A stretch of DNA of 64,000 nucleotides, from IMG/VR virus record IMGVR_UViG_3300035208_005701; one strand, given 5' to 3'. Origin of the DNA: a virus (lineage: Duplodnaviria; Heunggongvirae; Uroviricota; Caudoviricetes). The translations under genes were made by a program, and so were the position numbers. Below, one piece after another: positions 1 to 59,798 of this stretch; the first letter of the stretch is position 1, and every line of letters begins with the position of its first letter. The notes beneath the pieces were generated by a model. It saw only the letters and a program-made list of their open reading frames with translations, made no database searches and had not been told where the DNA came from.

Positions 1-2267
1 AATCGATTAATCTAGAAACTGGAGAAGTAGCAGAAAAACTTATTACTGATTATTCTAAACACGAAAATATAATAATGTACAAAATTCATGATCCAAAGAA
101 TAGATTTAAAGATTTTCATGTTTCAGAAGATCATAGTTTAATAGTATTCGATCATGAGGATAACAATTACAAAAAAATATCTCCACTTGAAATATTACAA
201 AATGTTTCAATTTATTCATTAGTTCAATGCAAAAATAAGAACAAGAAAAAGATTTCTGTTAAAGAAATAGAAATAAAATTAGATGAAACTATGACTACTG
301 GATATGATTTTACAGTAGTAGATAATTTTACATTTTCTACAGACGACGGGGTATTTGTTCAAGATACTATGGCATTATATACTCCAATTACAAAGGAAGC
401 AATAGAGGAAGTAAAAGAGAAAATGATATTATCTTATAGTCCTCACAGTTTACAAAAATTAGGAGATACATTTAATAAAGATATAGTAGCTGGAATTTAT
501 GTTCTTACTAAAAATCCACAAAAAGAATCAGATCCTGTGTTAATTAAAGATGAAACAGAATTTGAAAAATTGAATCCTAATACATACATAAAAAAAGAAG
601 GAATAAAAACAACAATTGGAAGAATTATATTTAACAGAGTTTTTCCTAAAGGGTATGACTATATTAATGAAGCAGTGAATGGTAAAAAACTTACATCATT
701 TGCTATGGACATTTTTAAGAATTACAATAAAGAAATTTACATGAAGTGGTGTAAGGATATTTTGACATTGTCTACTAAATACTTTACAATAATGGCTCCA
801 TCATTCTCTTTATCAGATTTAGAAATACCACCTCATGTATACAAATTAAAGGAAAAATTAAAATCTGTAAAAAATTCAGAAGAAGCAGATTTAATTTTAA
901 GACAAATTGAAAAAGAGATGTATGAATATTTAGTTAATACAAACAGCAATTTAGGAGTATTAGGTGAAGCAGGTGCTATTAAAAGTATATCACAGGTGAG
1001 ACAAATATTAGTAGCTAAAGGAATAATATCTGATAGCGAAGGAAAAACAGTAATGCCTCCTATATCTGATAGTTATTCTGATGGTTTATCAAGTAAGGAA
1101 TTTTTCTACAGTGGTATAGGTTCTAGAAAAGGTATTATTGATAGAGTTATTAATACATCAGAGACTGGATATATTTCAAGACAATTAGTATATGCTTTAC
1201 AAAGAGTTGAAGCAAGTAGAAAAGTAAAAGATTGCGGTACTAAAAAAACAATTACTTTAAGAATAAATGATGATATAGCTAAAAGGATATATGGAAGATA
1301 TATAATAAATGAAAGAACTAACAAAGTTGAACCATTTGATTCTAAAATTCATAAAAATGAAATAATCAAATTAAGAAGTCCATTATTTTGCAAGAGTGAA
1401 AAAATCTGTCATATTTGCTACGGAGATCTTTTATATCAAAACAAAACAGATTATGTTGGAATTTTAGCAGGTCATTTATTAGGTGAACCTTTATCTCAAA
1501 CTATTATGAAAAGTTTTCATTTAGGTGGAAGTATAAAAATGAAAACAACAAATTTCATAAAACAAGTCAGTCATATATTACATAAAAAAGAAGAAATAAT
1601 AGTTAATAAATCTTTTGAACAAAAAGGATCATCAATATATGCTAAAACTGATGGAATAATAGATATAGACATGAGTTATTATTTAGAACCAAAAAAAGAT
1701 GTTATTGTAAAAAGTGATGTAATTGAATTAAAATATGGATATTTTATGATATCTTTATCTGATATTGATTTAGATATTACATTGGATACAATAGTAAATG
1801 TTCCTTTAAAAGATAAAATAGTAACAGATAAGAATAATGGAAAAATTACAATTCAATTTAAAAAAGATGATTTGATTCTTAATTTACCACCAGTACCAGA
1901 AACTTTTTCAGAACAAGTAAAAATTATTAGAAGCTTATTAAATGGAAAACAACCATGGAAATCAGCAGAGCATTTTCTAATGAAGTTATATGATGTATAT
2001 AGAGAAATAGCTGGAGGAATTGATCTTGTACATATTGAAATTTTAGCTAGTAATTTATTAAGAGATAAAGGTAATCCATCATATCCAGCAAGATTGAATC
2101 AAAATTATCATGGGATGGTTGGGAATTTAAAGAATATTCCAGCATTGGAGTCATGGTTACAGTCTTTGAATTTTGAAAATATTAATAAATCTATAATGCA
2201 AGGTTTAGTTTATAATAGACCAGAACAAGAAACTATTCTAGAAGAAATAGTTTCTGGAAATCTATAA
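1..2267 (+). CDS. Multisubunit RNA polymerase beta'-like subunit, set 1 (5'-partial; the reading frame is open to the window start, and the listed ATG at 75 is probably internal)
   Basis: Bridge-helix-like GYISRQLVYALQ, then CxxC and trigger-loop-like GEPLSQTIMKSFHLGG, in the same order as in the paralog at 59799..62534 (SGYLTRKLVY ... RTFHIGG). No in-frame stop between nt 3 and 75. Confidence 0.7.
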   Translation, partial: SINLETGEVAEKLITDYSKHENIIMYKIHDPKNRFKDFHVSEDHSLIVFDHEDNNYKKISPLEILQNVSIYSLVQCKNKNKKKISVKEIEIKLDETMTTGYDFTVVDNFTFSTDDGVFVQDTMALYTPITKEAIEEVKEKMILSYSPHSLQKLGDTFNKDIVAGIYVLTKNPQKESDPVLIKDETEFEKLNPNTYIKKEGIKTTIGRIIFNRVFPKGYDYINEAVNGKKLTSFAMDIFKNYNKEIYMKWCKDILTLSTKYFTIMAPSFSLSDLEIPPHVYKLKEKLKSVKNSEEADLILRQIEKEMYEYLVNTNSNLGVLGEAGAIKSISQVRQILVAKGIISDSEGKTVMPPISDSYSDGLSSKEFFYSGIGSRKGIIDRVINTSETGYISRQLVYALQRVEASRKVKDCGTKKTITLRINDDIAKRIYGRYIINERTNKVEPFDSKIHKNEIIKLRSPLFCKSEKICHICYGDLLYQNKTDYVGILAGHLLGEPLSQTIMKSFHLGGSIKMKTTNFIKQVSHILHKKEEIIVNKSFEQKGSSIYAKTDGIIDIDMSYYLEPKKDVIVKSDVIELKYGYFMISLSDIDLDITLDTIVNVPLKDKIVTDKNNGKITIQFKKDDLILNLPPVPETFSEQVKIIRSLLNGKQPWKSAEHFLMKLYDVYREIAGGIDLVHIEILASNLLRDKGNPSYPARLNQNYHGMVGNLKNIPALESWLQSLNFENINKSIMQGLVYNRPEQETILEEIVSGNL

Positions 2268-2276
2268 GGATAATAT

Positions 2277-2522
2277 ATGAAATTAACAGATGTTTCTAGT
2301 GAATCATTAGAGAAATTAACTAATGTTATTTTAACTAATTTACATTTCAAGATACATCAAATATGGGCACATAGAAAAAGAAAAAATATAAATATACCTT
2401 TATTAAAAACGTGTCATGATATGATTAAAAGAGAAATGGAAAAAAGAAATTTGAATCATAATCCATTATCATTAAGAAAAAACTTAAATAAACTTTATAT
2501 TTACAATGAGGACATTGATTAA
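2277..2522 (+). CDS. Hypothetical small basic protein (81 aa) between the RNAP genes
   Basis: ORF with ATGA-type junction to the downstream gene; no recognisable motif. Confidence 0.35.
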   Translation: MKLTDVSSESLEKLTNVILTNLHFKIHQIWAHRKRKNINIPLLKTCHDMIKREMEKRNLNHNPLSLRKNLNKLYIYNEDID

Positions 2523-5500
2523 TGATACCACTAAACAAATTAAGATTATTCCCATTTCGTACTAAAAGTATAGCATTGGATACATTAAAAGGATTAGATA
2601 ATTATAACATATTTTTTCAACCAGAAAATTCTTTTTTTATAGATACTTATCCTTTTCTTAATATTCAAAAACGATTTATTAGGAAAGCTACTATAGTTCC
2701 AAGTGTGTTACCAAAGATGATTATCAGTAGTAAAACATTTATTGATTCTTTTAAAGGTACAGGATTGATTCCAATAAGGAAAACTACTGATTTAAAGAAT
2801 AATGTTTTTATAGATGGAACTCCGTTTTTTAAATTACTAGAAGATAAATTTGGAGCTGGTTCATATAGACGTCCATTTATGTTTGGAAGAGTTTTAAATT
2901 ATTATCAAATTATCAAAGAATTGGATTCAGATAGAAAGAATGTATTATTATATTATTTAGATTCAACTAAAGAATTTCCAAATTCATTAGTAGCTAGACG
3001 AATATTTCCACTCTTGTATTATATTTATAAAAATAAAACTGTTCCATTTTTTGATTATATTTTATTTGCTAATAAAACTATGGATGGTGAAATTACTTAT
3101 TCATTATTGAGTAGTCCTGATCAAGCAGTAAATATTTCTAGAATTTGGAGTTTATTTAAATCCCTCCAGAGTCCAACAATAGAGGAAAAGGATACATATA
3201 AAGAAGATATGGTTCACAAAGCCTCACAAACTTTAACTCAAAATATATCAGAGCCTCAAGATAACTCACAATTGATTCTCAATTCAGAGCAAGTTATTAA
3301 AGGATTTTTAAAGGATCAAAATGTCAATGTGCCTGAACAAGTAAATATTTCATCTGATAAAAGTTTACCTGTAGCAGTATCAGCAATAATATCTGGATTT
3401 ACTGGAAATAGTAATAAAGCTATTCAATATACTTCACAAGTTCCAGTTCAAGAATTACCTTCATTAATTAGACGATTGAAACAAGATATTTTACCAGAGA
3501 TAGTAGTTTCTACTAAATATAAAAACAAAAGTAGAGATATTGTATTTAGAGATGCAAAGATTCATGAAGTTAATAATAAAGAACCAAGTAAATTAATTAA
3601 TAAAAGATTTAGTGATTTTAATATTACATTTGAAAAGGATTTAAAGAATTCATTTGACTTGTTGAAAAATTCTAGATTTCCATTAACTCTTACAAAATTT
3701 ACAAAGGCAGATGTTCCTGTTGAAAATGGTGATTTGGAACCAAGTGATTTAGTTAGTTATTTTTTTACTTTAAAAGATGATTTAGGACATGATCATTCAA
3801 TTGAAATAGATATTCCAAAGATTAGTGATAATGGAACTTTTTTAATTAATGGTAAAAGAAAGTTTTTAATTTATCAAATAGTTATTGATCCAATTTATTT
3901 TATTAAACCTGGTCAAGCAAAATTGGAAACATTATATACAGCAATTTCTATTCATCATAAAAAAACAATTCATAAATCTTATTATGAAATTTATATGGCT
4001 GGATATGAATTACCTTTATTTCTACTATTATCCTATTTTATCGGTTTTGACGGATTAATGAAACTGTTTAATATTAGGTACAAGATAACAACAGATCAAC
4101 CGCCACAAGGTACTGTTTATGTCGTTTTATCGGATGGTGCATATATATGGATAGATCATAATAATGATGAAGCATCTATTAGATTAATAAATTCATTTTT
4201 TGAAATTAAACATAACTTTACTAAAACTTCTATTTTATCAAAACAAGAATGGCAATCAGCTATAGTATCTTATACAAGAACAAGAAATAGTATATTTAAA
4301 ATTGATAAAGTTATTATGAATATTATGGAACCTGTAGCTGTTCAAATTTTAAAAAGTAAAATGGAACCAACTACTTTACAAGATTGCATTTATTATATTT
4401 GTAAAGAATTAGCAACAGGTAGAGTGGATAAAAGAAATGATTTAGGAAATCAAAGAATAAGAAGTTCTGAGGTTTTTGTTTATCAAATTCAAAAATTAAT
4501 TTTAGCAGCATATACTAATTATGAATTTCAAAGAGGAGTTGGAGATAAGAATGCAACTTTTATATGTGAAACTAAAAAAGTAGTATCTGATATTGTAAAT
4601 TCTGAACTTGTTAGAGATCTTGAAAATATTAATCCAGTAGAAGAACTTTCATGTCTTACAAGAATTACTCCTGTAGGAGCTGGAGGTATTCCAGATGATA
4701 GAGCTTTAACAAACAAAGATAGAGGATTGCATGAATCGTATTATGGAAATATAGATCCGATGGATACTCCAGAAGGTGGAAATGTTGGATTAATAAATCA
4801 ATTAAGTATTTCTGCATCTGTATCTAATGCAAGAGGCACTTTTGGAACAAGCAAAGATGAAGATGAACGGGCTGGATCATTAAGTCCTTCTTCAGTTTTT
4901 ATTCCATATGTAGGATCATGTGATGGAAACAGAGTTATGTTTTCTTGCAGTCAAAGTAAACAAACAATACCAATAAATGGGAAGGAACAACCACTTGTTC
5001 AATCTGGTTATGAAACAAGTTTAACTCCTTTGTTAAGTGAATCATTTGTTAAGAAATCGCCAGTAGATGGAGTTATTATTAAACAAACAGATGCAACAAT
5101 AACTATTAAATCTGATTCAGGGAAAAATTATAAAGTTCCATTGGAATCCAAAGTTCTTATTTCTAGACAAGGTCAAGATTCATTAAATATATTCAAATCT
5201 ATTTATTCAGAAGGTACAAAGGTAGAGAAAGATCAAATAGTAGCAGAAGGAAAATATTTAGATAATGGTGTAATATGTTTAGGAACTAATTTGCTTACAG
5301 CTATAATGGGATGGAAAGGTTTTTCTTATGAAGATGGTTATGTAATTTCTGATAGAATAGCAAAACAAAAATTGACATCTGAATCATATGATGAAATAGT
5401 AATGGATCTAGATAAAGATGATATAATTAAGTTTGTAGCAGAAGAAGGAAAAATGACTCAAAAGGGTGAACCTTTAATAATAAGAAGTTCTAGTAAAATA

Positions 5501-6634
5501 GAAACTTTAGCTGGAGTAGAAGAAGATGAATTAGTTGAAGGACAAATTATTAAAAAATCACCTGGTGGTAAAATAATAGAAATTCAAATTTATCCAAATA
5601 TAAATATTAAACGTTTTCCTGTTTTAATAACTCCATTTTTAAAATTTAAAGCTAAGTATGAAGAGGTGAAAGGTTCTTTTCCTGAGAAATTTTTATTTAA
5701 TGTAGGTGGAGAAAAAATTCAATTTTCTGGAATTAGAATAGTTTTCAAATTAGAAAGATATGAAGAATGTGTAATTGGTGATAAAATAGCAAATATGCAC
5801 GGAGGTAAAGGTGTCATTGCTTACATTGAAAAAGAAGAAAATATGCCTCGTACTCCATTTGGTGAACATATTCAAGTAATTCTCAATCCTTTATCTTTAA
5901 TTAACAGAATGAATCCAAGTACATTGTATGAGATGTATACTGGATTAATTGCCAAATTTTTAGCATATCAGATAGTTTCATTAGATAGAACTAAATCAAT
6001 GAAATTAATTTCTCAAGTTTATAAAATCTTAGATCGAACAATAGATAAAAAGTTATCAACATCAATAATAAATAAATTTTTATCATTAAGTAATAATCAG
6101 TGGTTGCAATACATTGAAAATATTAGAACTAGAAATTATATTCTTCCTATAATAATTCCACCATTCCAAGCTCCATCTAAAAATGAAATATTGAAAGCAT
6201 TAGAGATAGTCGGAGCTGCACCAGAATATTATTTAACTTTACCTGAATATGGAATTAAAACATTTAATAAAGTAGCATGTGGATATATGTACTTCAAAAA
6301 GCTTGAAATGCAAAGTGAAGGAAAATTGACAGCTAGAAGTACAGGTAGATATCAAGAAAAAACATTACAACCAGTAGCTGGAAAAAAATCTGGTGGAGGA
6401 CAAAGAGTCGGAGAATTTGATACTTGGGCATTTGCTGGTCATGGAGCAGTAAATACTCTTAGAGAATTTTTTGGACCACTCAGTGATGATCAATCAACAA
6501 AAGATCAAATAATATATGATATAATTCAAACAGGGTCGGCTCATTACAGAGAACCAAAAACTTCACCTACAAGAAATATGTTAGAAATTTATATTAGAGG
6601 AATGATGCTTAATACAAGTTTGCATAATAAATAA
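2522..6634 (+). CDS. Multisubunit RNA polymerase beta-like subunit, set 1 (1370 aa, apparently unsplit)
   Basis: RITPVGAGGIPDDRALTNKDRGLHESYYGNIDPMDTPEGGNVGLINQL matches the RpoB ...GPGGL...HPTHYGR.CPIETPEGPNIGLIN block. C-terminal GGGQRVGEFDTWAFAGHGAVNTLRE matches RpoB GGQRFGEME.WALEAYGAA. Confidence 0.8.
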   Translation: MIPLNKLRLFPFRTKSIALDTLKGLDNYNIFFQPENSFFIDTYPFLNIQKRFIRKATIVPSVLPKMIISSKTFIDSFKGTGLIPIRKTTDLKNNVFIDGTPFFKLLEDKFGAGSYRRPFMFGRVLNYYQIIKELDSDRKNVLLYYLDSTKEFPNSLVARRIFPLLYYIYKNKTVPFFDYILFANKTMDGEITYSLLSSPDQAVNISRIWSLFKSLQSPTIEEKDTYKEDMVHKASQTLTQNISEPQDNSQLILNSEQVIKGFLKDQNVNVPEQVNISSDKSLPVAVSAIISGFTGNSNKAIQYTSQVPVQELPSLIRRLKQDILPEIVVSTKYKNKSRDIVFRDAKIHEVNNKEPSKLINKRFSDFNITFEKDLKNSFDLLKNSRFPLTLTKFTKADVPVENGDLEPSDLVSYFFTLKDDLGHDHSIEIDIPKISDNGTFLINGKRKFLIYQIVIDPIYFIKPGQAKLETLYTAISIHHKKTIHKSYYEIYMAGYELPLFLLLSYFIGFDGLMKLFNIRYKITTDQPPQGTVYVVLSDGAYIWIDHNNDEASIRLINSFFEIKHNFTKTSILSKQEWQSAIVSYTRTRNSIFKIDKVIMNIMEPVAVQILKSKMEPTTLQDCIYYICKELATGRVDKRNDLGNQRIRSSEVFVYQIQKLILAAYTNYEFQRGVGDKNATFICETKKVVSDIVNSELVRDLENINPVEELSCLTRITPVGAGGIPDDRALTNKDRGLHESYYGNIDPMDTPEGGNVGLINQLSISASVSNARGTFGTSKDEDERAGSLSPSSVFIPYVGSCDGNRVMFSCSQSKQTIPINGKEQPLVQSGYETSLTPLLSESFVKKSPVDGVIIKQTDATITIKSDSGKNYKVPLESKVLISRQGQDSLNIFKSIYSEGTKVEKDQIVAEGKYLDNGVICLGTNLLTAIMGWKGFSYEDGYVISDRIAKQKLTSESYDEIVMDLDKDDIIKFVAEEGKMTQKGEPLIIRSSSKIETLAGVEEDELVEGQIIKKSPGGKIIEIQIYPNINIKRFPVLITPFLKFKAKYEEVKGSFPEKFLFNVGGEKIQFSGIRIVFKLERYEECVIGDKIANMHGGKGVIAYIEKEENMPRTPFGEHIQVILNPLSLINRMNPSTLYEMYTGLIAKFLAYQIVSLDRTKSMKLISQVYKILDRTIDKKLSTSIINKFLSLSNNQWLQYIENIRTRNYILPIIIPPFQAPSKNEILKALEIVGAAPEYYLTLPEYGIKTFNKVACGYMYFKKLEMQSEGKLTARSTGRYQEKTLQPVAGKKSGGGQRVGEFDTWAFAGHGAVNTLREFFGPLSDDQSTKDQIIYDIIQTGSAHYREPKTSPTRNMLEIYIRGMMLNTSLHNK

Positions 6635-7615: not shown

Positions 7616-8582
7616 GATGAGAGTAAATGCTGATGATTATAAAGATTTAGGAAATTTTGATATTCCTAATGTAACTAGAAACACGTTCATGCCTGTATTT
7701 ATTACTGGAGAAAATAGACCTGGACAAGAGTATGGTAAACTACAGATTGGTGATTTAAGTAAACAACTATTTCAGAATAATTTGACTAAAGTATATTTTA
7801 TTCCACTATTTATAAAACAAATTTGGTCAAAAACAATAACTGAGAAAAATGATAAAAAAGAAGATTATGATAAACTTGTAGATTTTAGTTGGGACAATAA
7901 AGTTAAACCAAAACCAATTAATGATCCAGATTGTAAATATTCATATATTGTTGCTGGGTTATTTATAGATGAAAATACAAAGAAAAAAGTACCACATCCA
8001 TATATTGAAGACAAATATGCTGTTATATATTTTAATTGTAAAGGAACTAAAGTTGGATCCATTTTAGATTTTAATAAGTTGTTAGATACAACGATCAATG
8101 AATATATGTCAAGATCTGATTATAAAGCTCTTACAGCTGATGATAAAGGATCTTTTGATTATGACAGAGAAAAGATACTATGTGGATATAGAAGATTAAT
8201 TTGTAGTGCCGATGTAGCTTATGCGGATACAAATTTTGGAAAGAAGCATATTTTTAAATTTTCAGTGATCAAAGAAAAGACTCCGGATGGTAAAGGAGAA
8301 AGAAGTAAAGTATTAGATTCTGAAGATAGTAAAACAATATTGGATTTATGTAAAAATATTCAGAAAGATTTTACTAAGCAGTTCGATAGAACTCCTATGA
8401 TCAATAAGAATTTAAGTCAACCAGTAGTTACAACTGTATCGAATATAGAATTTGCTGATAATGTTAATAAGAATGATTCTTCAATACATGCTACTACTAA
8501 ACCAGTAAAAAATCCTGAACCGAAAGTAACTTCTCCAGCATCATCTAGTGATGATGCTTTTGATTTGGATTTAAGCTTATGA
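7616..8582 (+). CDS. Hypothetical protein with an acidic C-terminus (start at the ATG after AGGAGGAGAG, and the track ORF begins at 7551)
   Basis: RBS aggaggagag then ATG (MRVNADDYK...). The stop TGA overlaps the next start (ATGA). Confidence 0.45.
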
Positions 8583-9589
8583 TTGATAAAATAAACATTG
8601 CCAATTTATTGTTGACTAGAAGATGCAATTTATCTTGTAACTATTGTAGAATAGTGAAAGATATACCAGAAGTGTCAGAATATCCGTTAATGAACCATTA
8701 TAAAGAAAATGAATTATCCTCTGATAAATGGATAGAAATTATTTCTAGATTGAAGAAAAACAATCCAAATATTTTCTTAGTAATTTATGGAGGAGAACCT
8801 TTTTTATATAATGGATTAAGCGATGTAATAAATTATTGCCATTCTAATTCTGTTTATTATACAGTTATTAGTAATAATACAGACGGAATTCAAAAAAGAA
8901 TAGAAAAAGTTAGACAAGAAATTGGCGGTGTTTTTAAAGGGTTTACATCATCTGTAGACCCTTTAATTTTTTCTTCTTCTAATCAAACTTCAGATGAAGC
9001 AGAAAAAAGTTATAAAGGTTTTAATAGATTATTAGAAATGAAAAAAAGTGGAAAAGCAGAAGATGTAGTTGCTGAAATTACAGTTACTAAATATAGTATT
9101 CAATATTTATATCAATTAATTAGAACATTATCTGATAATGGAATATATTCATCAGTTACTGTTATTGATAAACAAAAAACTAAATATTATGATTTTTCTA
9201 CTGTTGATGATGAAGATTTATTAGTTCAAAAAAATAATGGTGTTAGAAACGAATTTGATAAAATTCAAAAAGATGATTCTTTATTAATTCATATTCCAAA
9301 AATGTTAGATCAAATGTATGATGATTTACCATATAATATGAAATGTACTTTAAAAGAAAATGTGCATAACGTCACAATAGATGCAGATGGAAGTTTCAGA
9401 TTATGTTTAAGAATTAGAGGTGTAGATATTCCCAAAGTAAAATTAGATAATATTATAGATGTAAATGGGAATATTCAAAAGGAAGTTAAAGAATCTATTA
9501 ATAAAGATTACGATAATTATTGTCGTAATTGCTTATGGACATGTATGTATTTTTCAGATAAATTTAGTGATAATATTTTAAATCACTAA
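8579..9589 (+). CDS. Radical SAM enzyme with a C-terminal Cys-rich (SPASM/twitch-like) region
   Basis: RRCNLSCNYCRI (Cx3Cx2C) near the N-terminus, GGEPFL SAM-binding motif, and C-terminal cysteines (CLRIRG...CRNCLWTC). Confidence 0.7.
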   Translation: MIDKINIANLLLTRRCNLSCNYCRIVKDIPEVSEYPLMNHYKENELSSDKWIEIISRLKKNNPNIFLVIYGGEPFLYNGLSDVINYCHSNSVYYTVISNNTDGIQKRIEKVRQEIGGVFKGFTSSVDPLIFSSSNQTSDEAEKSYKGFNRLLEMKKSGKAEDVVAEITVTKYSIQYLYQLIRTLSDNGIYSSVTVIDKQKTKYYDFSTVDDEDLLVQKNNGVRNEFDKIQKDDSLLIHIPKMLDQMYDDLPYNMKCTLKENVHNVTIDADGSFRLCLRIRGVDIPKVKLDNIIDVNGNIQKEVKESINKDYDNYCRNCLWTCMYFSDKFSDNILNH

Positions 9590-10057: not shown

Positions 10058-12316
10058 ATGAGCAAAGAATATTCATATAAAGATATTAAAGTTCTTAGTG
10101 AATTAGATCATATCAGATTAAACCCTGGTTTGTATATCGGGGAACTTAAAAATCCAAATCATCTTTGTTTCGAATTGTTAGATAATTCATTAGATGAAAG
10201 TATTCCTGGTTATGCAACAATAGTGGGAATAGTAATTAATACTCAAGAGGGGACAATTTCTGTATTAGATAATGGTAGAGGAATCCCTATTGAAAATAAT
10301 ACTATTCCTACTATAGCAACAAAACTTTTTTCAGGTGGTAAATTTGAAAAGAGTGAAGGTGGAAATGCTTATAAAGTTGCTTGTTGGGTTGGTTCTACAT
10401 TAATAAAAACTTTAAGAGGTCCTGTATCTATAGATGAGCTAATGGAAAATCCAGAAGTTCATCATCAGATTATATCACGACAAAAACATAATGGTAGAAA
10501 TTTTTGGAAAGTAGGATATATAAAAAAATGTCATTTAACTGGATATAGTAGAATATTTGTCAAAGTTACATTAAGTAATGGTTATACTGAAATGTGTACT
10601 CCTGAACAGTTATGGAGAACTAGAAATGGAAGATGGGTACCTGCTAAAAATTTAGAAGCGGGAACTTCATTGCTCACTTATAATTTAAGTGCTGATAATT
10701 ATTTTCCAACGGCCATGACTAGGAAAGTTACTAAAATTCAAAAAATGAGATTGAAAACCCAACTTCCAATATATGATATAATTGTTCCTTTTGGAAATTC
10801 ATATACTTTGGCTTCTGGGGCGCTTGTTCACAATTCTGGACTGCATGGAATAGGTTTAGTAGCAGTTACAGCATTGTCTGAATGGGTATCAGTCACTGTA
10901 CATAGAAATAATAAAAAGGCATTTTATAAATTTACAAATGCAAAATTAACAGAAGAAAAAATTACAGATTTTACTGAGAAAGCTCCTTATTCTACTCAAA
11001 TAACTTTTAAACCAGATAAAAAAATATTCGAATCTATTAAGTTTGAGGTTGATGCTATTCGACAACGAATGAAATTGGCTAGTGTGCATATTCCTCATTT
11101 GCAATTATTATTAATTGTTGATGGACAAAAAGAAGTAATAAATTGCGATGAGAATGATTATTTTCTACAGACATTGTTAGATGGAAAGAAATCTGAAAAT
11201 TTAACTTCAATTTTTGATATTAAAAAGAAGATTAAAGATGAAGAATTACATATCAAATTTTGTTGGGATTTTGAAGGTTCATCTGCTCCAAAACAAACTG
11301 GTTGTGTCAACTTGTTAAAAGTTGATCAGGGTAATCATATTAATATGGTATATTCTTCAATTAGAGATGTGTTTGAAGAATTAGGAAAAAAAGAGAAAAT
11401 GAAATTTACTGCATCTGATTCATTAGTTGGATTTAGATGTCATACTAGTCTTATGCTTTATAAGCCAGAATATACCTCTCAAACAAAAGAGAAATTGGCA
11501 ACATCTAAAGAAAAATTAAATCATTTATTTGAATCTGTTCAGATTGATATAAAAAAAATACTTAATGATAATCCAGAATTAAAAACTCAATTATTATCAA
11601 GTTTTGAAAATTATAGAAGAAGAATGGAGACAGGTAGAAGTATTGTTAAGACTGATGGAGTAGTTACTAGATTTAGCACTATTTCGGATTCTAAGTTGAG
11701 AGATTGTACTTCTAATTCTACGACTCAAACAGAATTATTCGTGACTGAAGGAACTAGTGCATCTGGATCTTTAATCCAATGTAGAGATCCGAGATATCAT
11801 GGAGTATTAGGATTAAAAGGAAAAATTCCAAATTTAGCTATGGCTGGAAAAGATGAATTGAAAAATAAAGAAATAGTGGAAATTATAAATGCACTTGGAA
11901 CTGGTATAGAACCGCATTTTAATTATCAAGGTCTGCGTTATGGAAAATGTATTTTTGCTTGCGACGCAGATGGAGATGGTTGCGCAAGATATGACTCTTT
12001 GATATATCTAAAAAATAAAAACGAACAAATACTAATAAAAGAATTAAAAGATCTTGTAGATAATAAAGATTATTTTAAAGATCATTTAATTTTAGGATAT
12101 AATGAAGAAGATAAAAAGTTCACATGGACTGAAATTATAAAAATATGGCCTTATAAAATATTTTCTGAATGGATAGATATAATATTGGAAAATGGACAAA
12201 TTATATCATTAACTCAAGACCATTTGGTTTTAACTAATAGAGGTTATATTAGAGCAGATGAATTAAATCAAGAGGATATTATAATAGATGCAGAAGAGTT
12301 TAGAGAAATTAGATAA
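10058..12316 (+). CDS. Type II topoisomerase ATPase plus Toprim (GyrB-like / T4 gp39-60-like) N-terminal polypeptide. It carries a contiguous mini-intein and ends in a split-intein N-fragment
   Basis: GHKL motifs ELLDNSLDE and DNGRGIP. ...SGGKFEKSEGGNAYKVA | intein | SGLHGIGLVAVTALS matches GyrB GGKFD..SYKVSGGLHGVG. Toprim ELFVTEGTSASGS. ...DADGDG is then followed by CARYDSLIYL... instead of the expected SHI..LLTFF. Confidence 0.8.
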   Translation: MSKEYSYKDIKVLSELDHIRLNPGLYIGELKNPNHLCFELLDNSLDESIPGYATIVGIVINTQEGTISVLDNGRGIPIENNTIPTIATKLFSGGKFEKSEGGNAYKVACWVGSTLIKTLRGPVSIDELMENPEVHHQIISRQKHNGRNFWKVGYIKKCHLTGYSRIFVKVTLSNGYTEMCTPEQLWRTRNGRWVPAKNLEAGTSLLTYNLSADNYFPTAMTRKVTKIQKMRLKTQLPIYDIIVPFGNSYTLASGALVHNSGLHGIGLVAVTALSEWVSVTVHRNNKKAFYKFTNAKLTEEKITDFTEKAPYSTQITFKPDKKIFESIKFEVDAIRQRMKLASVHIPHLQLLLIVDGQKEVINCDENDYFLQTLLDGKKSENLTSIFDIKKKIKDEELHIKFCWDFEGSSAPKQTGCVNLLKVDQGNHINMVYSSIRDVFEELGKKEKMKFTASDSLVGFRCHTSLMLYKPEYTSQTKEKLATSKEKLNHLFESVQIDIKKILNDNPELKTQLLSSFENYRRRMETGRSIVKTDGVVTRFSTISDSKLRDCTSNSTTQTELFVTEGTSASGSLIQCRDPRYHGVLGLKGKIPNLAMAGKDELKNKEIVEIINALGTGIEPHFNYQGLRYGKCIFACDADGDGCARYDSLIYLKNKNEQILIKELKDLVDNKDYFKDHLILGYNEEDKKFTWTEIIKIWPYKIFSEWIDIILENGQIISLTQDHLVLTNRGYIRADELNQEDIIIDAEEFREIR
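10382..10834 (+). mobile_element. Mini-intein (151 aa, Hint domain only) inserted in the GyrB-like ATPase domain between YKVA and SGLHG
   Basis: Begins with Cys (CWVGSTLIKT) and ends IYDIIVPFGNSYTLASGALVHN followed by the extein Ser. The flanking exteins rejoin into the conserved GyrB KV-SGLHG motif. GC content is visibly higher than in the surrounding sequence. Confidence 0.75.
11981..12313 (+). mobile_element. Split-intein N-fragment (about 111 aa) at the Toprim DxDGxH site, running to the stop of the N-terminal topoisomerase polypeptide
   Basis: The extein ...CIFACDADGDG is followed by Cys-1 (CARYDSLIYL...). Block-B-like LTQDHLVLTNRGYIRADEL (TxxH) sits near the end. The ORF stops without the intein C-terminal blocks. 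Confidence 0.65.
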
Positions 12317-13838
12317 AGTTAAACAGTTTTATCTAAATTATCTCAAGACTAAAAAAAGAGGAATTCTTGCTGCTGTAACTTATAGATTAAAAGATCCAGA
12401 GATAAAAACAACTTTGGATCTTTTAGTTCCTCTTCCATATAATTTATCTCTTAAATTTCATATGTGGTGTATTAGGAATTATGAATTGCCGAAATGTTTA
12501 TATTGTACCAAAGATTTACTTTTTAATTTGAAAAAAGGATTTTATACAAGTACCAAGCATAGATGCTGCTTCAAACCTCCTTATAATAATATTTATAGCA
12601 ATTATGAACAATTTTTCAATATGCCATCTTTAATGAAAGTTGATTATAAAACGTTCATACAACGACCAAATATTAAAAAAATAATTACTGAATTTTTAGA
12701 AAAATTTCCATATTTTTCTGATTATAAAACTCATATTTTCTCTCTATTTTCTTATGTTAAAAATTATGATGATTTATCATCTATACCTTATTGTAGAATT
12801 TGTGGAAAAAATAAAGTTTCTATTAATTTAACTTTATTATCCAAAAATAAGATATATTTTAATGATTATTGTTTTTCTTGTGTTCAAAAGTCAACTATGG
12901 AAAAAAGTATATCTTCAATAAAACAAAAATACAATGTAACAAATGTCAGTCAATTAGATTTTGTTAAGAAGAAGAAAGAGCAAACTAGTTTAAAAAATTA
13001 TCATGTAAAAAATCCAATGCAATCTGAAATAGTTAGATCTTCTCATAAACAAACATGTATTGATAGATATGGTGTTGAAAACGTATCTCAATCTGATCAA
13101 ATTAAAGTTCAAAAAAAAGAAACAATTTTAAAAAATTTCGGAAATTGGGAAACATTTATACAACATACATTAGGTGCATTTTGTAAAAGTAAAGGAGTTG
13201 AAAATGTATCTCAATTGAAAGAAGTAAAAGATAAAAAGATTTTAACATTTTTAAATCATTATGGAGTTGAAAATTGTTTTCAATCAGAAGAGATAAAATC
13301 TCAATCTAAATTAACATGTTTGAATAGATATGGATATGAATATTATTCACAAAGTATAGAAGCAAGAAGAAATACGAGAGAGAGATTATTAAATCAAATT
13401 GAAATTCAATTTTTGAACGGTGAACCTCTTGTTCCCACAATAGGGATATTTGAAAGAGAGTGTTTTAATTATTTAGAAAGAGAATGTAATATTCAAATTC
13501 TTAGAAATTCTAGATGTATAGGTTATTTTGTTGATGGATTTATACCATATATAAATTTATGCATAGAGTTTGATGAGGAGTTTCATTTTGATAAATATGG
13601 AAATTTATTAGATGTAGATTTAAGAAGACAAAAAGAAATTCAAGATTATCTATCATGTGAATTTTTTAGAATTTCTAAAAAGAATTGGAATGTAAATAGA
13701 GAAAGAGTAGTTACTAATTTTAAAGAAATAATGGAAAAATGTTCAAATAAAATATCAGATAATAATATTAAAGTCATTTTCGAAAATAGACAATACAGAA
13801 TAATTAGGAGTAACTATGAAGATAAGGAAAATAAATAA
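12288..13838 (+). CDS. Free-standing putative homing endonuclease between the two intein halves, with a PD-(D/E)xK / Vsr-like nuclease core at the C-terminus
   Basis: Inserted exactly between IntN and IntC in a different frame. Tandem modules of about 30 aa (RYGVENVSQSDQIK / KGVENVSQLKEVK / YGVENCFQSEEIK / RYGYEYYSQSIE). C-terminal GYFVDGFIPYINLCIEFDEEFH resembles the D...(E/D)xK 'IEVDG..H' nuclease signature. Confidence 0.5.
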   Translation: MQKSLEKLDKVKQFYLNYLKTKKRGILAAVTYRLKDPEIKTTLDLLVPLPYNLSLKFHMWCIRNYELPKCLYCTKDLLFNLKKGFYTSTKHRCCFKPPYNNIYSNYEQFFNMPSLMKVDYKTFIQRPNIKKIITEFLEKFPYFSDYKTHIFSLFSYVKNYDDLSSIPYCRICGKNKVSINLTLLSKNKIYFNDYCFSCVQKSTMEKSISSIKQKYNVTNVSQLDFVKKKKEQTSLKNYHVKNPMQSEIVRSSHKQTCIDRYGVENVSQSDQIKVQKKETILKNFGNWETFIQHTLGAFCKSKGVENVSQLKEVKDKKILTFLNHYGVENCFQSEEIKSQSKLTCLNRYGYEYYSQSIEARRNTRERLLNQIEIQFLNGEPLVPTIGIFERECFNYLERECNIQILRNSRCIGYFVDGFIPYINLCIEFDEEFHFDKYGNLLDVDLRRQKEIQDYLSCEFFRISKKNWNVNRERVVTNFKEIMEKCSNKISDNNIKVIFENRQYRIIRSNYEDKENK

Positions 13839-13926
13839 AAGAAAATTAAATAATATAAATTTTTGCGACTTAACTACAGGAACTGGAAATTTTGTATTAG
13901 CAAATGGAAATGTTGTTATTCATAAT
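13816..13926 (+). mobile_element. Split-intein C-fragment (37 aa) at the start of the C-terminal topoisomerase polypeptide
   Basis: MKIRKINKRKLNNINFCDLTTGTGNFVLANGNVVIHN followed by S. The length and pattern match DnaE-type IntC sequences (...HNFALKNGFIASN). Confidence 0.65.
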
Positions 13927-14280
13927 AGTCATATTACTACATTATTAATGATTGTATTTTTAAAACTAGTCCCTGAATTAATAAAAAAAGGTCACATTTT
14001 TACAGCAGAGATGCCTCTTTATGGTGCTCAAGTTGGAAAAGTATTTACTCCTTTTTATACAGATGAGGATGTAGAAAAATTTAAATTATCTAATCCTAAT
14101 GTCAAATTACAAAGATATAAAGGTTTAGGTGAAATGAATCCAGATCAATTGAAAGTTTGTTTATTAGATTCTTCTAGACGATTGCATAAAATTGAATTTC
14201 CTGATAATAGCGAAGATCTTTTAAAACTTATGATAGATGCTGATCTCAAAAGACAATTGGTACAAAGGGAGGAAGAATGA
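13816..14280 (+). CDS. IntC plus the C-terminal part of the GyrB-like topoisomerase II subunit (completes the Toprim and tail)
   Basis: After HN: SHITTLLMIVF (GyrB SHIRTLLLTFF) ... YKGLGEMNPDQL (GyrB KGLGEMNP.QL). Confidence 0.75.
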   Translation: MKIRKINKRKLNNINFCDLTTGTGNFVLANGNVVIHNSHITTLLMIVFLKLVPELIKKGHIFTAEMPLYGAQVGKVFTPFYTDEDVEKFKLSNPNVKLQRYKGLGEMNPDQLKVCLLDSSRRLHKIEFPDNSEDLLKLMIDADLKRQLVQREEE

Positions 14281-15584
14281 AAATTAGCGTGCCGAAATTG
14301 TATTCTGAGTATGGGAGATATATAAATAAATTCAGATCTTTTCCTTTAATTCATGACGGATTGAAAATAGTGGAACGTCGTCTGCTTTATTCTTTATATG
14401 AAGTATCACGAGATCATTATACTAAAGCTGCAAAAGTGATAGGACATTGTATAGGAAATTATCACGGACATGGAGATCAGAGCGCATATGGATCACTGGT
14501 GGGTCTTGTTCAAAATAATTTAGCTGATGGACAAGGTAACTGGGGTTCTGATATCGGAATAGAATCATGTGATCCAGCAGCTATGAGATATACAGAAGTA
14601 AGATGCAGCAAAGATGTTTTGAAATTGGCTTTTGAATTTATCAAGTATGTAGATTTTGAGGCATTAGAACTTGATTCTGAACCAGTATACTTACCTACTA
14701 AATTACCATTTTGTCTTTTACAAAAATATTATTCTCAAGGAATAGGATTTGGGTTTAGAACATATATTCCATGTTATAAAATTAATGATTTAATTAAAAG
14801 ATTAAAGTGGTTATTAGGTGAATCTAAAACTGAACCTATAATTAAACCAATAAGTGATTGTGATTTATTATCTACTAACAATGATTATAAAGAACTTCTT
14901 ACTACTGGAAAAGGCAAGATAGAATTACAAGGTAAGAGTTTCATTGATGGAAAATCAGTTGTAATTCAATCGATTCCTCCCGCTAAAACTTTTCTTAAAA
15001 TAATTCAATTTTTAGAAAAAGATATTACTGCAAAAAATATAGGGTGGACAGATGAATCTAATGGTAGAGATGGAACTAAAGTAAGATTTACTATTTTAAG
15101 ACAAAGAGGATACTCTGTAGAATCATTACAAGATAAAATACAGAAAATGTTAAAAAGTACTATTACATTTGAATGTAATATGTGTGATACGGATGGAAAA
15201 GTAATTTTGGTTCCTCCAGATCAAATGTTACTTACTACTTATAAAATGTATAAAGATACAATAGAAAAATACTTAAAAGATAATATTCAAAATCTGGATA
15301 ATAAAATTCAAGAGATGAATATTATTAAAAAGATCAAGATTATATTACCGGATCTACTTAAAACTTATCCAGATGATCCAGATAAGATAATAGAAAATAT
15401 ATGTAACAAACTTCAAATAACTTCTGATATAGTAAAGGATTTATTTGAAAAATACAATATCAATAGACTGTTAAAAGTAAAAGTTGATATTGAAAAAGTA
15501 GAAACAGACAAACAAGTATTTGTGGACAATTTAAATAATTTAGTAAATTATATCTGGACTGAAAAATATGAAAGGGGATTCTAA
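14277..15584 (+). CDS. Type II topoisomerase DNA breakage-reunion subunit (GyrA N-terminal-like / T4 gp52-like)
   Basis: DGLKIVERRLLYSLYE..., IGNYHGHGDQSAYGSLVGLVQ (GyrA KYHPHGD), and the active-site region AMRYTEVR (GyrA AMRYTE.R with the catalytic Tyr). Confidence 0.8.
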   Translation: MKISVPKLYSEYGRYINKFRSFPLIHDGLKIVERRLLYSLYEVSRDHYTKAAKVIGHCIGNYHGHGDQSAYGSLVGLVQNNLADGQGNWGSDIGIESCDPAAMRYTEVRCSKDVLKLAFEFIKYVDFEALELDSEPVYLPTKLPFCLLQKYYSQGIGFGFRTYIPCYKINDLIKRLKWLLGESKTEPIIKPISDCDLLSTNNDYKELLTTGKGKIELQGKSFIDGKSVVIQSIPPAKTFLKIIQFLEKDITAKNIGWTDESNGRDGTKVRFTILRQRGYSVESLQDKIQKMLKSTITFECNMCDTDGKVILVPPDQMLLTTYKMYKDTIEKYLKDNIQNLDNKIQEMNIIKKIKIILPDLLKTYPDDPDKIIENICNKLQITSDIVKDLFEKYNINRLLKVKVDIEKVETDKQVFVDNLNNLVNYIWTEKYERGF

Positions 15585-16030: not shown

Positions 16031-16459
16031 ATGTATATAATACGAAAAAAAATTAAATTTGAAATGGGGCATAGATTGACTGGTGCGTATACTAAATTAT
16101 GCAAGAACAGCCATGGACATAGTTTTGAACTGGAATTATTTTTTAGAAGTGACAAACTTGATGAAGATGGATTTATAATTGATTTTAAATTAATTAAAGA
16201 TAAACTTAAAGATTATATAGATAAATGGGATCATTGTTTTGTTATTTCTTCTCAAATGGATAAAGAATATATAGATTTTGAAAAGAAATACAATGATAAA
16301 ATTGAAGTAGTTGATTTTAATCCTACAGCTGAAAACATGGTAAAAAATATGTATGATTATATTAAGATTCAATTTCCTTGTTTGTGGAAAGTCAGACTTC
16401 ATGAAACAGATACTGGTTATGCTGAATATTATGAAGATGAAAAGTGTTGTAAAGGATAA
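16031..16459 (+). CDS. queD: 6-carboxy-5,6,7,8-tetrahydropterin synthase (QueD / PTPS family)
   Basis: GHRL...CKNSHGHSF (Cx3HGH zinc/catalytic motif) ... IIDF ... WDH. The size of 142 aa is typical. Confidence 0.75.
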   Translation: MYIIRKKIKFEMGHRLTGAYTKLCKNSHGHSFELELFFRSDKLDEDGFIIDFKLIKDKLKDYIDKWDHCFVISSQMDKEYIDFEKKYNDKIEVVDFNPTAENMVKNMYDYIKIQFPCLWKVRLHETDTGYAEYYEDEKCCKG

Positions 16460-20911: not shown

Positions 20912-21273
20912 GGGGGAGTAAAGGTTTCGACGTGGTAAATTAAGTATGAATTGCATGTAGAGGATGATCGTTGGCCTCTTAAATAATCGATTAAAAAATA
21001 GACGAAAATTCTATTGATTTTTCTCCATTATCTCTTGCTGCATAAGTGAGACCAATTCTTAGGGATATTTCGACTTGAGAATTGACATAATTGAAATTGC
21101 AGGTTGAATAATTCGTTAAATTGTATTCAAATAAGAATCTTTAAATTAACTAGAATCAATATATAATAGTTTGTTGAATATATAGATTTTAAATTATTAA
21201 TACGAACTAAACATGTGAATGAAGTTTATATAGTATTTATTACGGATCTGGGTTCGACTCCCAGCTCTTCCAT
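20912..21273 (+). ncRNA. ssrA: tmRNA (SsrA-like), one-piece, about 362 nt
   Basis: 5' GGGGGAG-taaaGGTTTCGACG (compare GGGGCUGAUUCUGGAUUCGACG). 3' T-arm ctggg-TTCGACT-cccag, then ctcttcc pairing with the 5' gggggag, and discriminator A. Internal tag frame 21001..21045 is gac gaa aat tct att gat ttt tct cca tta tct ctt gct gca TAA (..DENSIDFSPLSLAA*), preceded by aaaaaaTAGac as in the E. coli resume context. Confidence 0.8.
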
Positions 21274-21280
21274 TTATAAT

Positions 21281-46559: not shown

Positions 46560-46772
46560 TTCAAAAATTTTTTGGAATAAATTATACAAGGAGAAACTAT
46601 GAAGAAACAACTATTAAATTTATTTGTGAAACATCATAGTCTACTTAGTATGATTCTTGGTGGAGGAATATTTCTACCTAGAATAATTCAGGAATAGAGT
46701 TGAAATTACTTGTTCCTGAAAGAAACCTTTTAGGAAGAAGCTAAAAGGAAGTTTAATTTTTTATATTATTAT

Positions 46773-46845
46773 CTGGGTGTGGGATAGTTGGTAATCTGTC
46801 CGGTCTGGAACCGGAAGATCAGAAATTCAAATCTTCTTACCCAGA
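46773..46845 (+). tRNA. tRNA-Pro (anticodon TGG), 73 nt, with C33 instead of U33 and a weak last T-stem pair
   Basis: Hand-folded. Acceptor ctgggtg / tacccag (C1:G72) with discriminator A73, both tRNA-Pro identity features. D-arm ggat-agttggta-atct. Anticodon arm tccgg-tcTGGaa-ccgga. T-arm agaaa-ttcaaat-cttct. Confidence 0.55.
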
Positions 46846-46945
46846 TATTTATTTTGCATCTATAGAGTAGTATTTGTGATTTCTCATCATAAGGTCTCGA
46901 TGCAATTTTGAGTAAACTCTTATTTAATTTAAAGGATATATTTAT

Positions 46946-47185
46946 ATGAGTGATATTTGTAAATGTAAATTATGTAAAAGATCCAGAAAAGTTAAAAGAT
47001 ATTTATATAAAATTTCAGATGAAAAAGTTAGAAAGTTTTTTCGTCAAATATATGAGTCATTAAATAATGTTGAATTCGATGTAGAGTGGCTAGCTGCAAG
47101 AAAAGAGACATTTGCAAAGTATCTTATGAATAAAAAATTATTATATGATTTTACAGTTTGGAAAATGGGAAATAAAGAATTTTAA
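46946..47185 (+). CDS. Hypothetical basic small protein (79 aa)
   Basis: ORF between the tRNA genes. Confidence 0.4.
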   Translation: MSDICKCKLCKRSRKVKRYLYKISDEKVRKFFRQIYESLNNVEFDVEWLAARKETFAKYLMNKKLLYDFTVWKMGNKEF

Positions 47186-47187
47186 TT

Positions 47188-47269
47188 GCCGAGTTGTCGG
47201 AATTGGTATACGAGCAGGTCTTAGAAATCTGTGGAGAAATCTATAAAAGTTCAAATCTTTTACTCGGCA
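47188..47269 (+). tRNA. tRNA-Leu (anticodon TAG), type II with a long variable arm, 82 nt
   Basis: Hand-folded. Perfect 7-bp acceptor gccgagt / actcggc, discriminator A. 3-bp D-stem tcg/cga with an 11-nt D-loop. Anticodon arm caggt-ctTAGaa-atctg. 13-nt variable region. T-arm aaaag-ttcaaat-ctttt. Confidence 0.75.
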
Positions 47270-47288
47270 CTTATAATAAGGAGTGAAC

Positions 47289-47513
47289 ATGATAATTTCA
47301 GCTGCGATGCTTATCAATTCTAAAATATATACTGGAAAACGTCATTATAACATAATAAAAGATAATCCTGGATTAACATTTAAAGATGGTATTCAGGGAT
47401 TTGTAGATGATAAAGATAAATTTTTAAATAGAAAACAAGCAGCTATAGAAGCTTTTAAGTGTGGTCAAATTTCAAAAAAAGTAACAGTTTTATTAAGTGA
47501 AGATTTGTATTAA
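47289..47513 (+). CDS. Hypothetical small protein (start at the ATG after AAGGAGTGAAC)
   Basis: ORF only. Confidence 0.4.
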   Translation: MIISAAMLINSKIYTGKRHYNIIKDNPGLTFKDGIQGFVDDKDKFLNRKQAAIEAFKCGQISKKVTVLLSEDLY

Positions 47514-47694
47514 GGATTCAATAATGTTAATTAAAGTTAAAAGATATGATACTACTTATTATTATCCAACTGAAACAAGATATATGATATATAATATTAA
47601 AAAGAGAAAATTAATTAAATCATCTGAAGAAACAAAATCTAAAAATAAAATAGATATTTACGCATAAAGTTAAATTTAATATTTAGGGGTAAAA

Positions 47695-48048
47695 ATGAAA
47701 ATTCGAACAGGATTTGTTAGTAGTTCTTCTTTTGTAATTTATGGAATTAGATTAACTAAAGATCAAATTAATTATTTGCTTAAAAAATATAAGGTTGATA
47801 CTGTAGATGAATTACCAAGAAAATTCGGAGATGTTGAATTGGTATATAGTTCAGATGATGCTCCCTCAGAAAAAATAAATTACTTTCTCGCAAATTGGAT
47901 ATCTCCCGAAATATATGGTATAGGTGAGTATGATTTAACTTGTAATGATATATTGAAAATTAAAGAATCAATTTATAAAATACTAGATGTAAGAATTGAA
48001 CCTAAATTAATTGTCAAATATAATGAAAGTAAGAAATGGATTCATTAG
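47695..48048 (+). CDS. Divergent member 6 of the family (MKIRTGFVSSSSFVIYG; shortened Ser run)
   Basis: N-terminus MKIRTGFVSSSSF. Confidence 0.5.
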   Translation: MKIRTGFVSSSSFVIYGIRLTKDQINYLLKKYKVDTVDELPRKFGDVELVYSSDDAPSEKINYFLANWISPEIYGIGEYDLTCNDILKIKESIYKILDVRIEPKLIVKYNESKKWIH

Positions 48049-48223
48049 TAACTCGAGTAGTTCTTCTTTTATAGTTTGTGTAAGATTTATATATGATAGT
48101 TTCAACAATTCCAATAAATTATTGATTGATAAAAAATCTATAAAAAACTTATTAATTATGGATTTCAGAAATGTAATTGGTCAAGTCCAATATCATTGTA
48201 TTTTAATGAAGATTTGTTATTAA
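48023..48223 (+). CDS. Member 7 of the family, apparently truncated (MKVRNGFISNSSSSSFIVCV..., about 66 aa). Possibly a pseudogene, with the continuation frameshifted into 48196..48426
   Basis: Canonical N-terminus, but the ORF ends early. The adjacent ORF is in a different frame. Confidence 0.4.
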   Translation: MKVRNGFISNSSSSSFIVCVRFIYDSFNNSNKLLIDKKSIKNLLIMDFRNVIGQVQYHCILMKICY

Positions 48224-48527
48224 TTAATTATAAAGAGGTAATTGATAATATTAATATTAAAACTTTAGGATATTGTATACAATGCAATCAAAATGATGTG
48301 ATAGAATTTTTGGTGGAAAATAAAATATCATTTAATTCAACTATTCATAATTTATCTGAAATTTTATTATATGATTCTGAAAAAAGATTTAATGTATTTT
48401 TATCAAAATTATGGATGTCAACATGAATTTGATATGATACTAAATAAAAATAATTTAATAGAGATAAAAGATAAATCCCCGTTAAAAGTATTAACAGGGA
48501 AATCTTGGTTGAAAAAATATAAGTAAT

Positions 48528-48600
48528 GGTGGTGTTGGCCGAGAGGTTTAGGCACTGGCCTGTGGAGCCAGAAAGATGGGTTCAATTCCCATACATCACC
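48528..48600 (+). tRNA. tRNA-His (anticodon GTG) with an encoded extra 5' G(-1)
   Basis: Hand-folded. G-1 then gtggtgt / acatcac acceptor (one G-U) and discriminator C. D-arm gcc-gagaggttta-ggc. Anticodon arm ctggc-ctGTGga-gccag. T-arm atggg-ttcaatt-cccat. No encoded CCA. Confidence 0.75.
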
Positions 48601-48625
48601 TATTCTCACAAAGAAAGGTTTTGAA

Positions 48626-59770: not shown

Positions 59771-59798
59771 TTTACATTTTTAGATGGAAGGAGAATGC

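Follow-up and report, generated by a model that had tools for sequence, protein, structure and literature searches.

The stretch of viral DNA analysed here, a window of 64,000 nucleotides with a guanine plus cytosine (GC) content of 25.8% (IMG/VR record IMGVR_UViG_3300035208_005701; all coordinates are window positions), carries a GyrB-like gene for the large subunit of a phage topoisomerase II. The gene is interrupted by a segment of 151 codons, and this segment is a class 1 mini-intein with the HINT fold and not a native loop of the enzyme. We estimate the probability that the segment is an intein, judged by descent and fold, at about 0.97. The element is unusual in one respect only: the histidine of block B is missing, and glutamine takes its place. 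Inteins in GyrB, mini-inteins and genes with multiple inteins are already well documented, and the family found at this particular insertion site is unannotated rather than conceptually new.

The interrupted open reading frame (ORF), 10058..12316 on the plus strand, encodes 752 amino acids with matches to Pfam HATPase_c, DNA_gyraseB and Toprim, and to the NCBIfam GyrB/ParE models at expectation values (E) of 1e-65 to 1e-78. Its best tblastn matches among GenBank phages are annotated as 'DNA topoisomerase II large subunit' or 'DNA gyrase subunit B', and all phage matches obtained in this way are split in two pieces around the segment. The segment itself, 453 nucleotides coding for CWVG...LVHN, is in frame with the ORF; at 25.8% GC, the chance of 151 open codons is about 1e-7, and the other five frames contain 9-16 stops each. 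When aligned to five intein-free homologs (those of Listeria phage LIS04, Xanthomonas phage phiXF1 and Bacillus phage HSE3, T4 gp39 and E. coli GyrB), it corresponds to a single clean gap of 151 columns, located between the equivalents of S112 and G113 of E. coli GyrB in the motif Y109-K-V-S/G-G-L-H-G117, which forms the glycine-rich ATP lid (here and below, a slash marks an insertion or splice junction). With the segment taken out, YKVA-SGLHG is equal in length to YKVS-GGLHG.

The original prediction, made by a model from the letters of the window, had described a 151-residue insertion splitting YKVA/SGLHG, and this is correct to the base. Its account of the termini, with a cysteine at the start, His-Asn at the end and a serine thereafter, is borne out as well, and so is the lack of an endonuclease domain: Pfam matches neither HNH nor LAGLIDADG in 10382..10834, and a block of about 270 residues with an HNH motif, found in relatives at the same site, is missing from the window intein in an alignment of six sequences (A4). 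It was also right to count two inteins of different types in one gene, as the contiguous mini-intein is accompanied by a split intein downstream. What it overlooked, in an otherwise sound reading of the segment as a mini-intein, is the glutamine in block B (T-P-E-Q, where the glutamine stands at position 10, B:10). That the gene is an essential one was an assumption; T4 topoisomerase II mutants have a DNA-delay phenotype and are viable rather than lethal, with the host gyrase acting as a substitute.

The relationship to inteins is apparent at several levels of homology. When 1.84 billion cluster representatives were searched exhaustively with phmmer, 396 relatives were found at E<=1e-3, 32 of them at E<=1e-10. 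Among the best 150 of these 396, GyrB-like proteins account for 33, with local domain E-values down to 2e-17, and intein homologs of the segment also occur in unrelated host proteins. In at least 15 of the cluster representatives, an intein occupies the identical junction, YKxx/C...HN/SGxHG. A nine-member profile was assembled from mini-inteins of the GyrB ATP lid, seven of which are at the junction of the window (the window intein included) and two at a junction two residues downstream. Compared with the sequences of the PDB, this profile gave 30 matches, all of them inteins or HINT domains and the best being the NrdJ-1 intein (E 2.7e-15); Pfam Intein_splicing matches all nine members, at best with E 2.5e-16. 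The segment by itself scores above the cutoff of the NCBIfam model TIGR01443 (intein_Cterm) and is matched by the model for intein-containing RtcB at E 2e-7; with phmmer it gives only weak matches to PDB sequences (E 0.15-0.26), of which the best four are all inteins. No match was obtained in word-indexed homolog searches, either with the intein alone or with a 16-sequence intein profile (A3). Since the exhaustive search with HMMER found 396 relatives, this reflects a limit of the word index and not an absence of homologs.

Structure prediction was performed with AlphaFold2 on the six-row alignment A4, made up of the window intein and five full-length proteins, and resulted in a model with a mean predicted local distance difference test (pLDDT) score of 89.9 and a predicted template modelling (pTM) score of 0.83; a single-sequence model (pLDDT 34.7) was discarded. 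The best 50 Foldseek matches of the model in the PDB are all inteins or HINT domains, with the Ssp DnaE intein in first place (E 4e-9, TM score 0.79) and TM scores of up to 0.81, values that apply to a predicted and not to a solved structure. The key residues Cys1, Thr73, Asp132, His150, Asn151 and Ser+1 are all present. Because of Cys1, the class 2 and class 3 readings are out; together with that of a bacterial intein-like (BIL) element, they were rejected on Cys1, on the aspartate at position 4 of block F (F:4), where a class 3 intein would have the Cys of a WCT triplet in combination with a lack of Cys1, and on the conserved insertion site. Domains of the BIL/Hedgehog type are located in variable, non-conserved parts of non-essential or secreted proteins and typically cleave instead of ligating; the window insertion, in contrast, is inside the invariant ATP-lid motif of a topoisomerase and is flanked by canonical splice-junction residues.

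Among the characterised systems, NrdJ-1, Ssp/Npu DnaE, Pho RadA, gp41-1 and the splicing domain of Mtu RecA are like the window intein, as modelled, in their HINT fold (TM scores 0.73-0.81). Class 1 mini- and split inteins of known structure resemble it in profile comparisons (E 2.7e-15 to 1e-9) at an identity of only 14-23%, and have in common with it Cys1, the threonine at position 7 of block B (B:7), Asp F:4, the His-Asn C-terminus and a Ser or Cys at +1. They differ in that they reside in other host proteins and at other sites, and those for which a residue-by-residue alignment was made (NrdJ-1, Pho RadA and gp41-1) keep the histidine at B:10. Cellular GyrB inteins (Ssp GyrB, the halobacterial/cyanobacterial 'gyrB' allele and the Desulfonema GyrB mini-intein) share the host family with the window intein; the classical GyrB allele is presumably that of the Toprim EGDSA region. 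In one survey, 33 bacterial GyrB inteins were counted (PMC4760082), while elsewhere inteins have been described in 61 archaeal GyrB sequences (PMC9348778), and a GyrB mini-intein of 123 residues has been reported (PMC6390638).

If the mini-intein is removed and the halves of the gene are joined across the downstream split intein, the conceptual product has 607 residues. Intein-free, unsplit homologs of 600-613 residues can be aligned to 99-100% of its length, at 52-63% identity, and one of these (P0152) likewise has 607. In the homologs, the empty first site reads YKIA-SGLHG, YKIA-TGLHG or YGIA-AGLHG and the second one, uninterrupted, DADxDG-[SA]HI[TN]TLLM; the conceptual junction of the window gene after excision is ...GGNAYKVA-SGLHGIGLVAVTALSEWVSVTVHR....

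Splicing of the mini-intein would start with an attack of Cys1 on the carbonyl of Ala(-1), leading to an N-S acyl shift, after which the N-extein would pass to Ser+1 by transesterification. Cyclisation of Asn151, assisted by His150, would free the intein, and an O-N shift would give the peptide bond in ...YKVA-SGLHG... and restore the ATP lid; trans-splicing at the downstream split intein would complete the subunit of 607 residues. The atypical point in this scheme would be the initial step, in which Gln76 stands in the place of His B:10, the usual activator of the scissile bond, and a small Ala is present at -1. With this combination, splicing would probably be slower or reliant on some compensating feature.

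The histidine at B:10 is nearly universal. In an alignment made by phmmer from the 150 best relatives, 240 of the 244 intein domains contain it, and three of the four other cases are misalignments and one is a real Lys, which brings the genuine count to 240/241. All 15 same-site inteins have it, leaving the window intein as the sole one with Gln among the 16. A review of 2014 mentions only two inteins without the block B His, Arth_1007 and Tko CDC21-1, of which the former is a degraded pseudogene and the latter compensates by means of Lys58 (PMC4031507). Steric compensation is possible as well, through a side chain at -1 that is larger than Ala (PMC6333167). The active Tko CDC21-1 is, like the window intein, a natural intein without the block B His; its Lys58 lies outside the conserved motifs, and the window intein has Leu and Thr at residues +22/+23 after B:10, with no equivalent of Lys58 identified. 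The Arth_1007 DnaB intein also lacks His B:10, but it is degraded overall and the window intein is otherwise intact. The literature that was retrieved describes no natural intein with Gln at B:10. The Thr and His of block B, with B:10 among them, are highly conserved assisting residues and not strictly defining ones, and the element is still filed as an intein despite its missing His because the literature accepts inteins without it (PMC4031507).

Several points weigh against the reading as a class 1 intein, and against a working one in particular. Besides the Gln at B:10, these are the Ala at -1, which is smaller than the known steric compensation requires, an Asn instead of a His at position 13 of block F (F:13; though common to 22 of 138 relatives), the score of Pfam Intein_splicing on the segment alone (17.5 bits, with a cutoff of 35.8), and the fact that the window intein forms a long branch without a close relative for a test of purifying selection. 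The Pfam score below the gathering threshold and the empty word-indexed search could also be taken to favour a lineage-specific loop of the ATPase domain, unrelated to inteins and kept in the mature enzyme. Such a loop is highly improbable: the nearest homologs (63-52% identity) are without the segment altogether, the segment is homologous to inteins, including those in unrelated host proteins, its predicted structure has the HINT fold, C1, HN and S+1 are found exactly at the boundaries of the gap, and the insertion breaks the glycine-rich ATP lid. The original prediction had named a native loop without Hint similarity as the outcome that would speak against it; the profile matches to solved inteins, the fold search and the same-site homologs refute such a loop and uphold the core of that prediction. 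It could also be imagined that the segment is an intein by descent which no longer splices, or does so too poorly to matter, so that 151 residues stay in the ATP lid. The large subunit would then be inactive, the phage would make use of the host gyrase or topoisomerase IV, and the locus would be at an early stage of decay, the block B His having been lost after the endonuclease. Given the viability of topoisomerase II mutants of T4, the phage could tolerate a dead intein. We consider this decay possible, if doubtful. It is favoured by the contrast of Gln with the His of nearly all genuinely aligned relatives, by the pseudogene state of one of the two His-less inteins known in 2014 (PMC4031507), by the long branch, and by the codon, since CAY to CAG is a single third-position substitution and could therefore be recent. 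It is opposed by the intact state of all other catalytic residues, of the frame, of both exteins, of the split intein and of the endonuclease ORF, as well as by the sequence still giving a confident HINT fold in the prediction; a long-dead gene at 26% GC should gather stop codons fast, and a harmful mutation of very recent date would hardly have become the consensus in a contig with an assembled length of at least 78.9 kb. An identical protein is present in a separately assembled Logan contig, so that the Gln represents at least a consensus, even though the two assemblies may share reads. Because of these intact parts, and of the greater damage that should be visible in a long-dead gene of so AT-rich a genome, we lean, on sequence grounds, towards an intein that still splices. 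For full splicing competence despite Gln B:10 and Ala(-1), the chances appear to be evenly balanced; this would involve a His-independent activation of the N-terminal scissile bond, by the Gln amide itself or by some compensating residue, and would place the window intein alongside Tko CDC21-1.

With regard to its origin, the mini-intein had been described as more GC-rich than its surroundings and, for this reason, as a relatively recent acquisition. The first part holds in comparison with the window mean (31.6% for the segment, at the 94th percentile of 453-nucleotide windows), but not in comparison with the flanking exteins (29.8%; Fisher p=0.48), and at third codon positions the GC contents are 15.9% and 14.5% (p=0.70). 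The small excess is at codon position 2 and therefore reflects amino-acid composition. The second part is not supported: homing from another genome shortly before sampling is unlikely, even if the percentile, the sporadic occurrence of inteins at the ATP-lid site and the empty sites of the closest relatives could be taken in its favour. Besides the lack of a GC difference between intein and exteins, the copy has no endonuclease for self-homing and there is no donor-like close relative, the best being 37% identical. A metagenomic contig (L009; Joint Genome Institute 3300029286) allows a comparison of the whole locus, as it carries a same-site intein of 411 residues with HNH (in protein P0014), a split intein at DADSDG/C, a DUF7487 ORF of 519 residues and a C-terminal piece of 154 residues. 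Identity between the window and this contig is 50-56% for the exteins, 31-37% for the ATP-lid intein, 35% for the N half of the split intein and 33% for the endonuclease ORF. By this measure, the other mobile modules common to both are at least as foreign as the ATP-lid intein, and the divergence pattern is explained by long residence no less well than by recent arrival, if not better. As the sites in the closest extein relatives are empty, independent gain and precise loss are both possible.

The window intein is a member of a family at the exact ATP-lid site, present in other, mostly metagenomic, GyrB-like genes, of which many members keep an HNH homing endonuclease. Having no endonuclease domain, the window copy is not mobile by itself, and it may persist only through the need to excise from its host protein. 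The locus therewith illustrates later stages of the homing cycle, with same-site relatives that bear HNH on the one hand and a copy from which the nuclease has been lost on the other. If the window intein splices, it offers a compact natural system of 151 residues for studying the activation of the N-S acyl shift without the canonical His, a step that is exploited in intein-based thioester generation; if not, the locus shows a phage topoisomerase gene inactivated through the decay of its own parasite. For annotation, the locus stands for one topoisomerase II large subunit of 607 residues after one cis-splicing and one trans-splicing event, and not for a protein of 752 residues plus fragments. 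The features of the gene are collected in the table.

Table. Features of the topoisomerase II large subunit gene and its inteins in the window
Feature	Position	Strand	Description and basis
N-extein	10058..10381	+	First 108 residues, GHKL ATPase, up to ...GGNAYKVA; Pfam HATPase_c, NCBIfam GyrB/ParE, alignment to intein-free homologs
Ala(-1)	10379..10381	+	Last N-extein residue
Mini-intein	10382..10834	+	151 residues, class 1, HINT fold, no endonuclease domain; HMMER relatives, same-site inteins, profile against PDB, AlphaFold2, Foldseek
Cys1	10382..10384	+	Codon TGT; Cys in 102/102 aligned relatives
Block B, T73-P-E-Q76	10598..10609	+	ACT CCT GAA CAG, preceded by Cys72; Thr B:7 present, His B:10 replaced by Gln (CAG 10607..10609)
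Asp132	10775..10777	+	Block F position 4, in YDIIV; Asp in 128/140 relatives
Asn139	10796..10798	+	Block F position 13, usual residue His; relatives have His in 82/138, Asn in 22/138
Block G, His150 and Asn151	10829..10834	+	Penultimate His and terminal Asn; NCBIfam TIGR01443 intein_Cterm 18.1 bits, cutoff 15.6
Ser+1	10835..10837	+	First C-extein residue, putative transesterification nucleophile; Ser or Thr here in several intein-free homologs too
C-extein segment 1	10835..11980	+	382 residues, ATPase remainder, transducer and Toprim to DADGDG; Pfam DNA_gyraseB, Toprim
Split-intein N fragment	11981..12316	+	111 residues plus stop, after DADGDG, canonical block B TQDH; Pfam Intein_splicing 48.6 bits, TIGR01445 intein_Nterm at residues 642-726
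Free-standing homing-endonuclease-like ORF	12288..13838	+	516 residues; Pfam DUF7487 E 1.7e-19, PHROGs 'homing endonuclease' 1.4e-20
Split-intein C fragment	13816..13926	+	37 residues, ...VVIHN/S, fused to the GyrB C-terminus; TIGR01443 18.4 bits
C-extein segment 2	13927..14280	+	117 residues plus stop, GyrB C-terminal region from SHITTLLM; Pfam DNA_gyraseB_C

The same-site inteins fall into two size ranges. The larger ones, of 337-415 residues (P0014, P0016, P0017, P0055, P0148, P0182, P0208 and P0211), contain the block of about 270 residues between the splicing lobes, with the HNH motif ...IHHKDxNKxNNxPxNL..., and Pfam HNH_3 is recorded for P0014, P0182 and P0211. The smaller ones have 141-171 residues (P0035, P0142, P0049, P0120 and P0231). 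Like the window intein, these metagenomic inteins have the same insertion point, a small residue at -1, C1, HN and S+1-G-x-H-G, and their blocks A/B/F/G can be aligned with it; all of them differ from it in having His at B:10, and the HNH-bearing ones also in the presence of the HNH domain. The window intein is 29-37% identical to each same-site intein and the HNH-bearing ones are 55-69% identical among themselves; the other mini versions at the site are also long branches. Ten same-site proteins that were looked up are all known only from metagenomes. Both inteins of the window gene are sporadic in their clade, since of the 119 homolog clusters closest to the gene no more than about 5 are occupied at the ATP-lid site, and about 10 show a split or contiguous intein at DxDxDG.

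A second group of inteins is found two residues downstream in the ATP lid, in the context ...SRG/C...SN/[ST]HG (P0077, P0087, P0131, P0029 and P0042), with Ser or Gly and not His as the penultimate residue. Neighbouring insertion points at such a distance are known from DnaB as well. As further inteins are present after EGDSAGG in Toprim and after DxDxDG, there are at least four intein insertion points in GyrB-like genes.

Outside these metagenomic proteins, several searches were made. The IMG/VR scan with the whole ORF returned no relative, tblastn of the window intein gave no match in GenBank phages, and tblastn with the N half of another same-site intein, one of more typical sequence, gave no topoisomerase host among its GenBank phage matches. 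The latter search did detect inteins in phage NrdA, DNA polymerase and helicase, and in two huge uncultured phages. In these two (LR756511.1, 595 kb, and LR756508.1, 484 kb; L007 and L008), the related inteins are in putative portal-like large ORFs, with matches at 2501..2800, and in the latter phage the ORF holds three inteins or more, of which one includes an HNH-like block. A narrow scan of reference genomes for intein/extein junction peptides gave three loci and no ATP-lid topoisomerase intein; the only junction-spanning one (L013, also the only one inspected) is an intein in a putative terminase large subunit. A literature search for an intein in a 'topoisomerase II large subunit' retrieved no paper. 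In the searches made, inteins at the ATP-lid site were found only in metagenomic, probably viral, proteins.

Downstream of the mini-intein, the N fragment of the split intein, the endonuclease ORF and the C fragment form a fractured arrangement (11981..14280) that is kept in the contig L009. The endonuclease ORF has a weak Vsr/MTES_1575-like match (REase_MTES_1575) and overlaps the end of the N fragment by 29 nucleotides. Arrangements of this type were described in 2009 as 'fractured genes', mainly in phages and with Vsr-related endonucleases, in a paper in which topoisomerase, gyrase, GyrB and gp39 are not mentioned (PMC2677866).

In the Toprim region between both inteins, the motif at 11744..11758 reads ...TEGTSASG..., so that the canonical EGDSA is EGTSA in the window gene. 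The relatives have EGISA, EGQSA, EGTSA or EGSSA at this position; the Asp is variable and the Glu, Gly, Ser and Ala are kept in the phage clade.

The source of the window is a large AT-rich phage, with all 33 ORFs of at least 200 residues in the 64 kb on the plus strand. A GyrA-like topoisomerase II subunit is encoded directly downstream (14277..15584), and an SbcC-like protein and a helicase are encoded in the window as well. Matches to the PHROGs 'RNA polymerase beta subunit' at 75..2267, 2522..6634 and 59784..62534 (+), in beta/beta'-like ORFs, suggest, by sequence similarity, a phage-encoded multisubunit RNA polymerase that is split over several genes. The topoisomerase genes are flanked by a radical SAM protein (8579..9589, +; Pfam and a weak QueE-like match in PHROGs) and by a protein of the 6-pyruvoyl-tetrahydropterin synthase/QueD type (16031..16459, +; PF01242, E 2e-27), a pair that might belong to a 7-deazaguanine-type pathway of nucleotide modification. 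A full-length gene for transfer-messenger RNA is located at 20912..21275 (+; Rfam RF00023, 105 bits, E 4e-40), for which ARAGORN gives the tag peptide ENSIDFSPLSLAA, and three transfer RNA genes, on which ARAGORN and Rfam agree, lie within 46772..48601 (+), namely Pro(TGG), Leu(TAG) and His(GTG).

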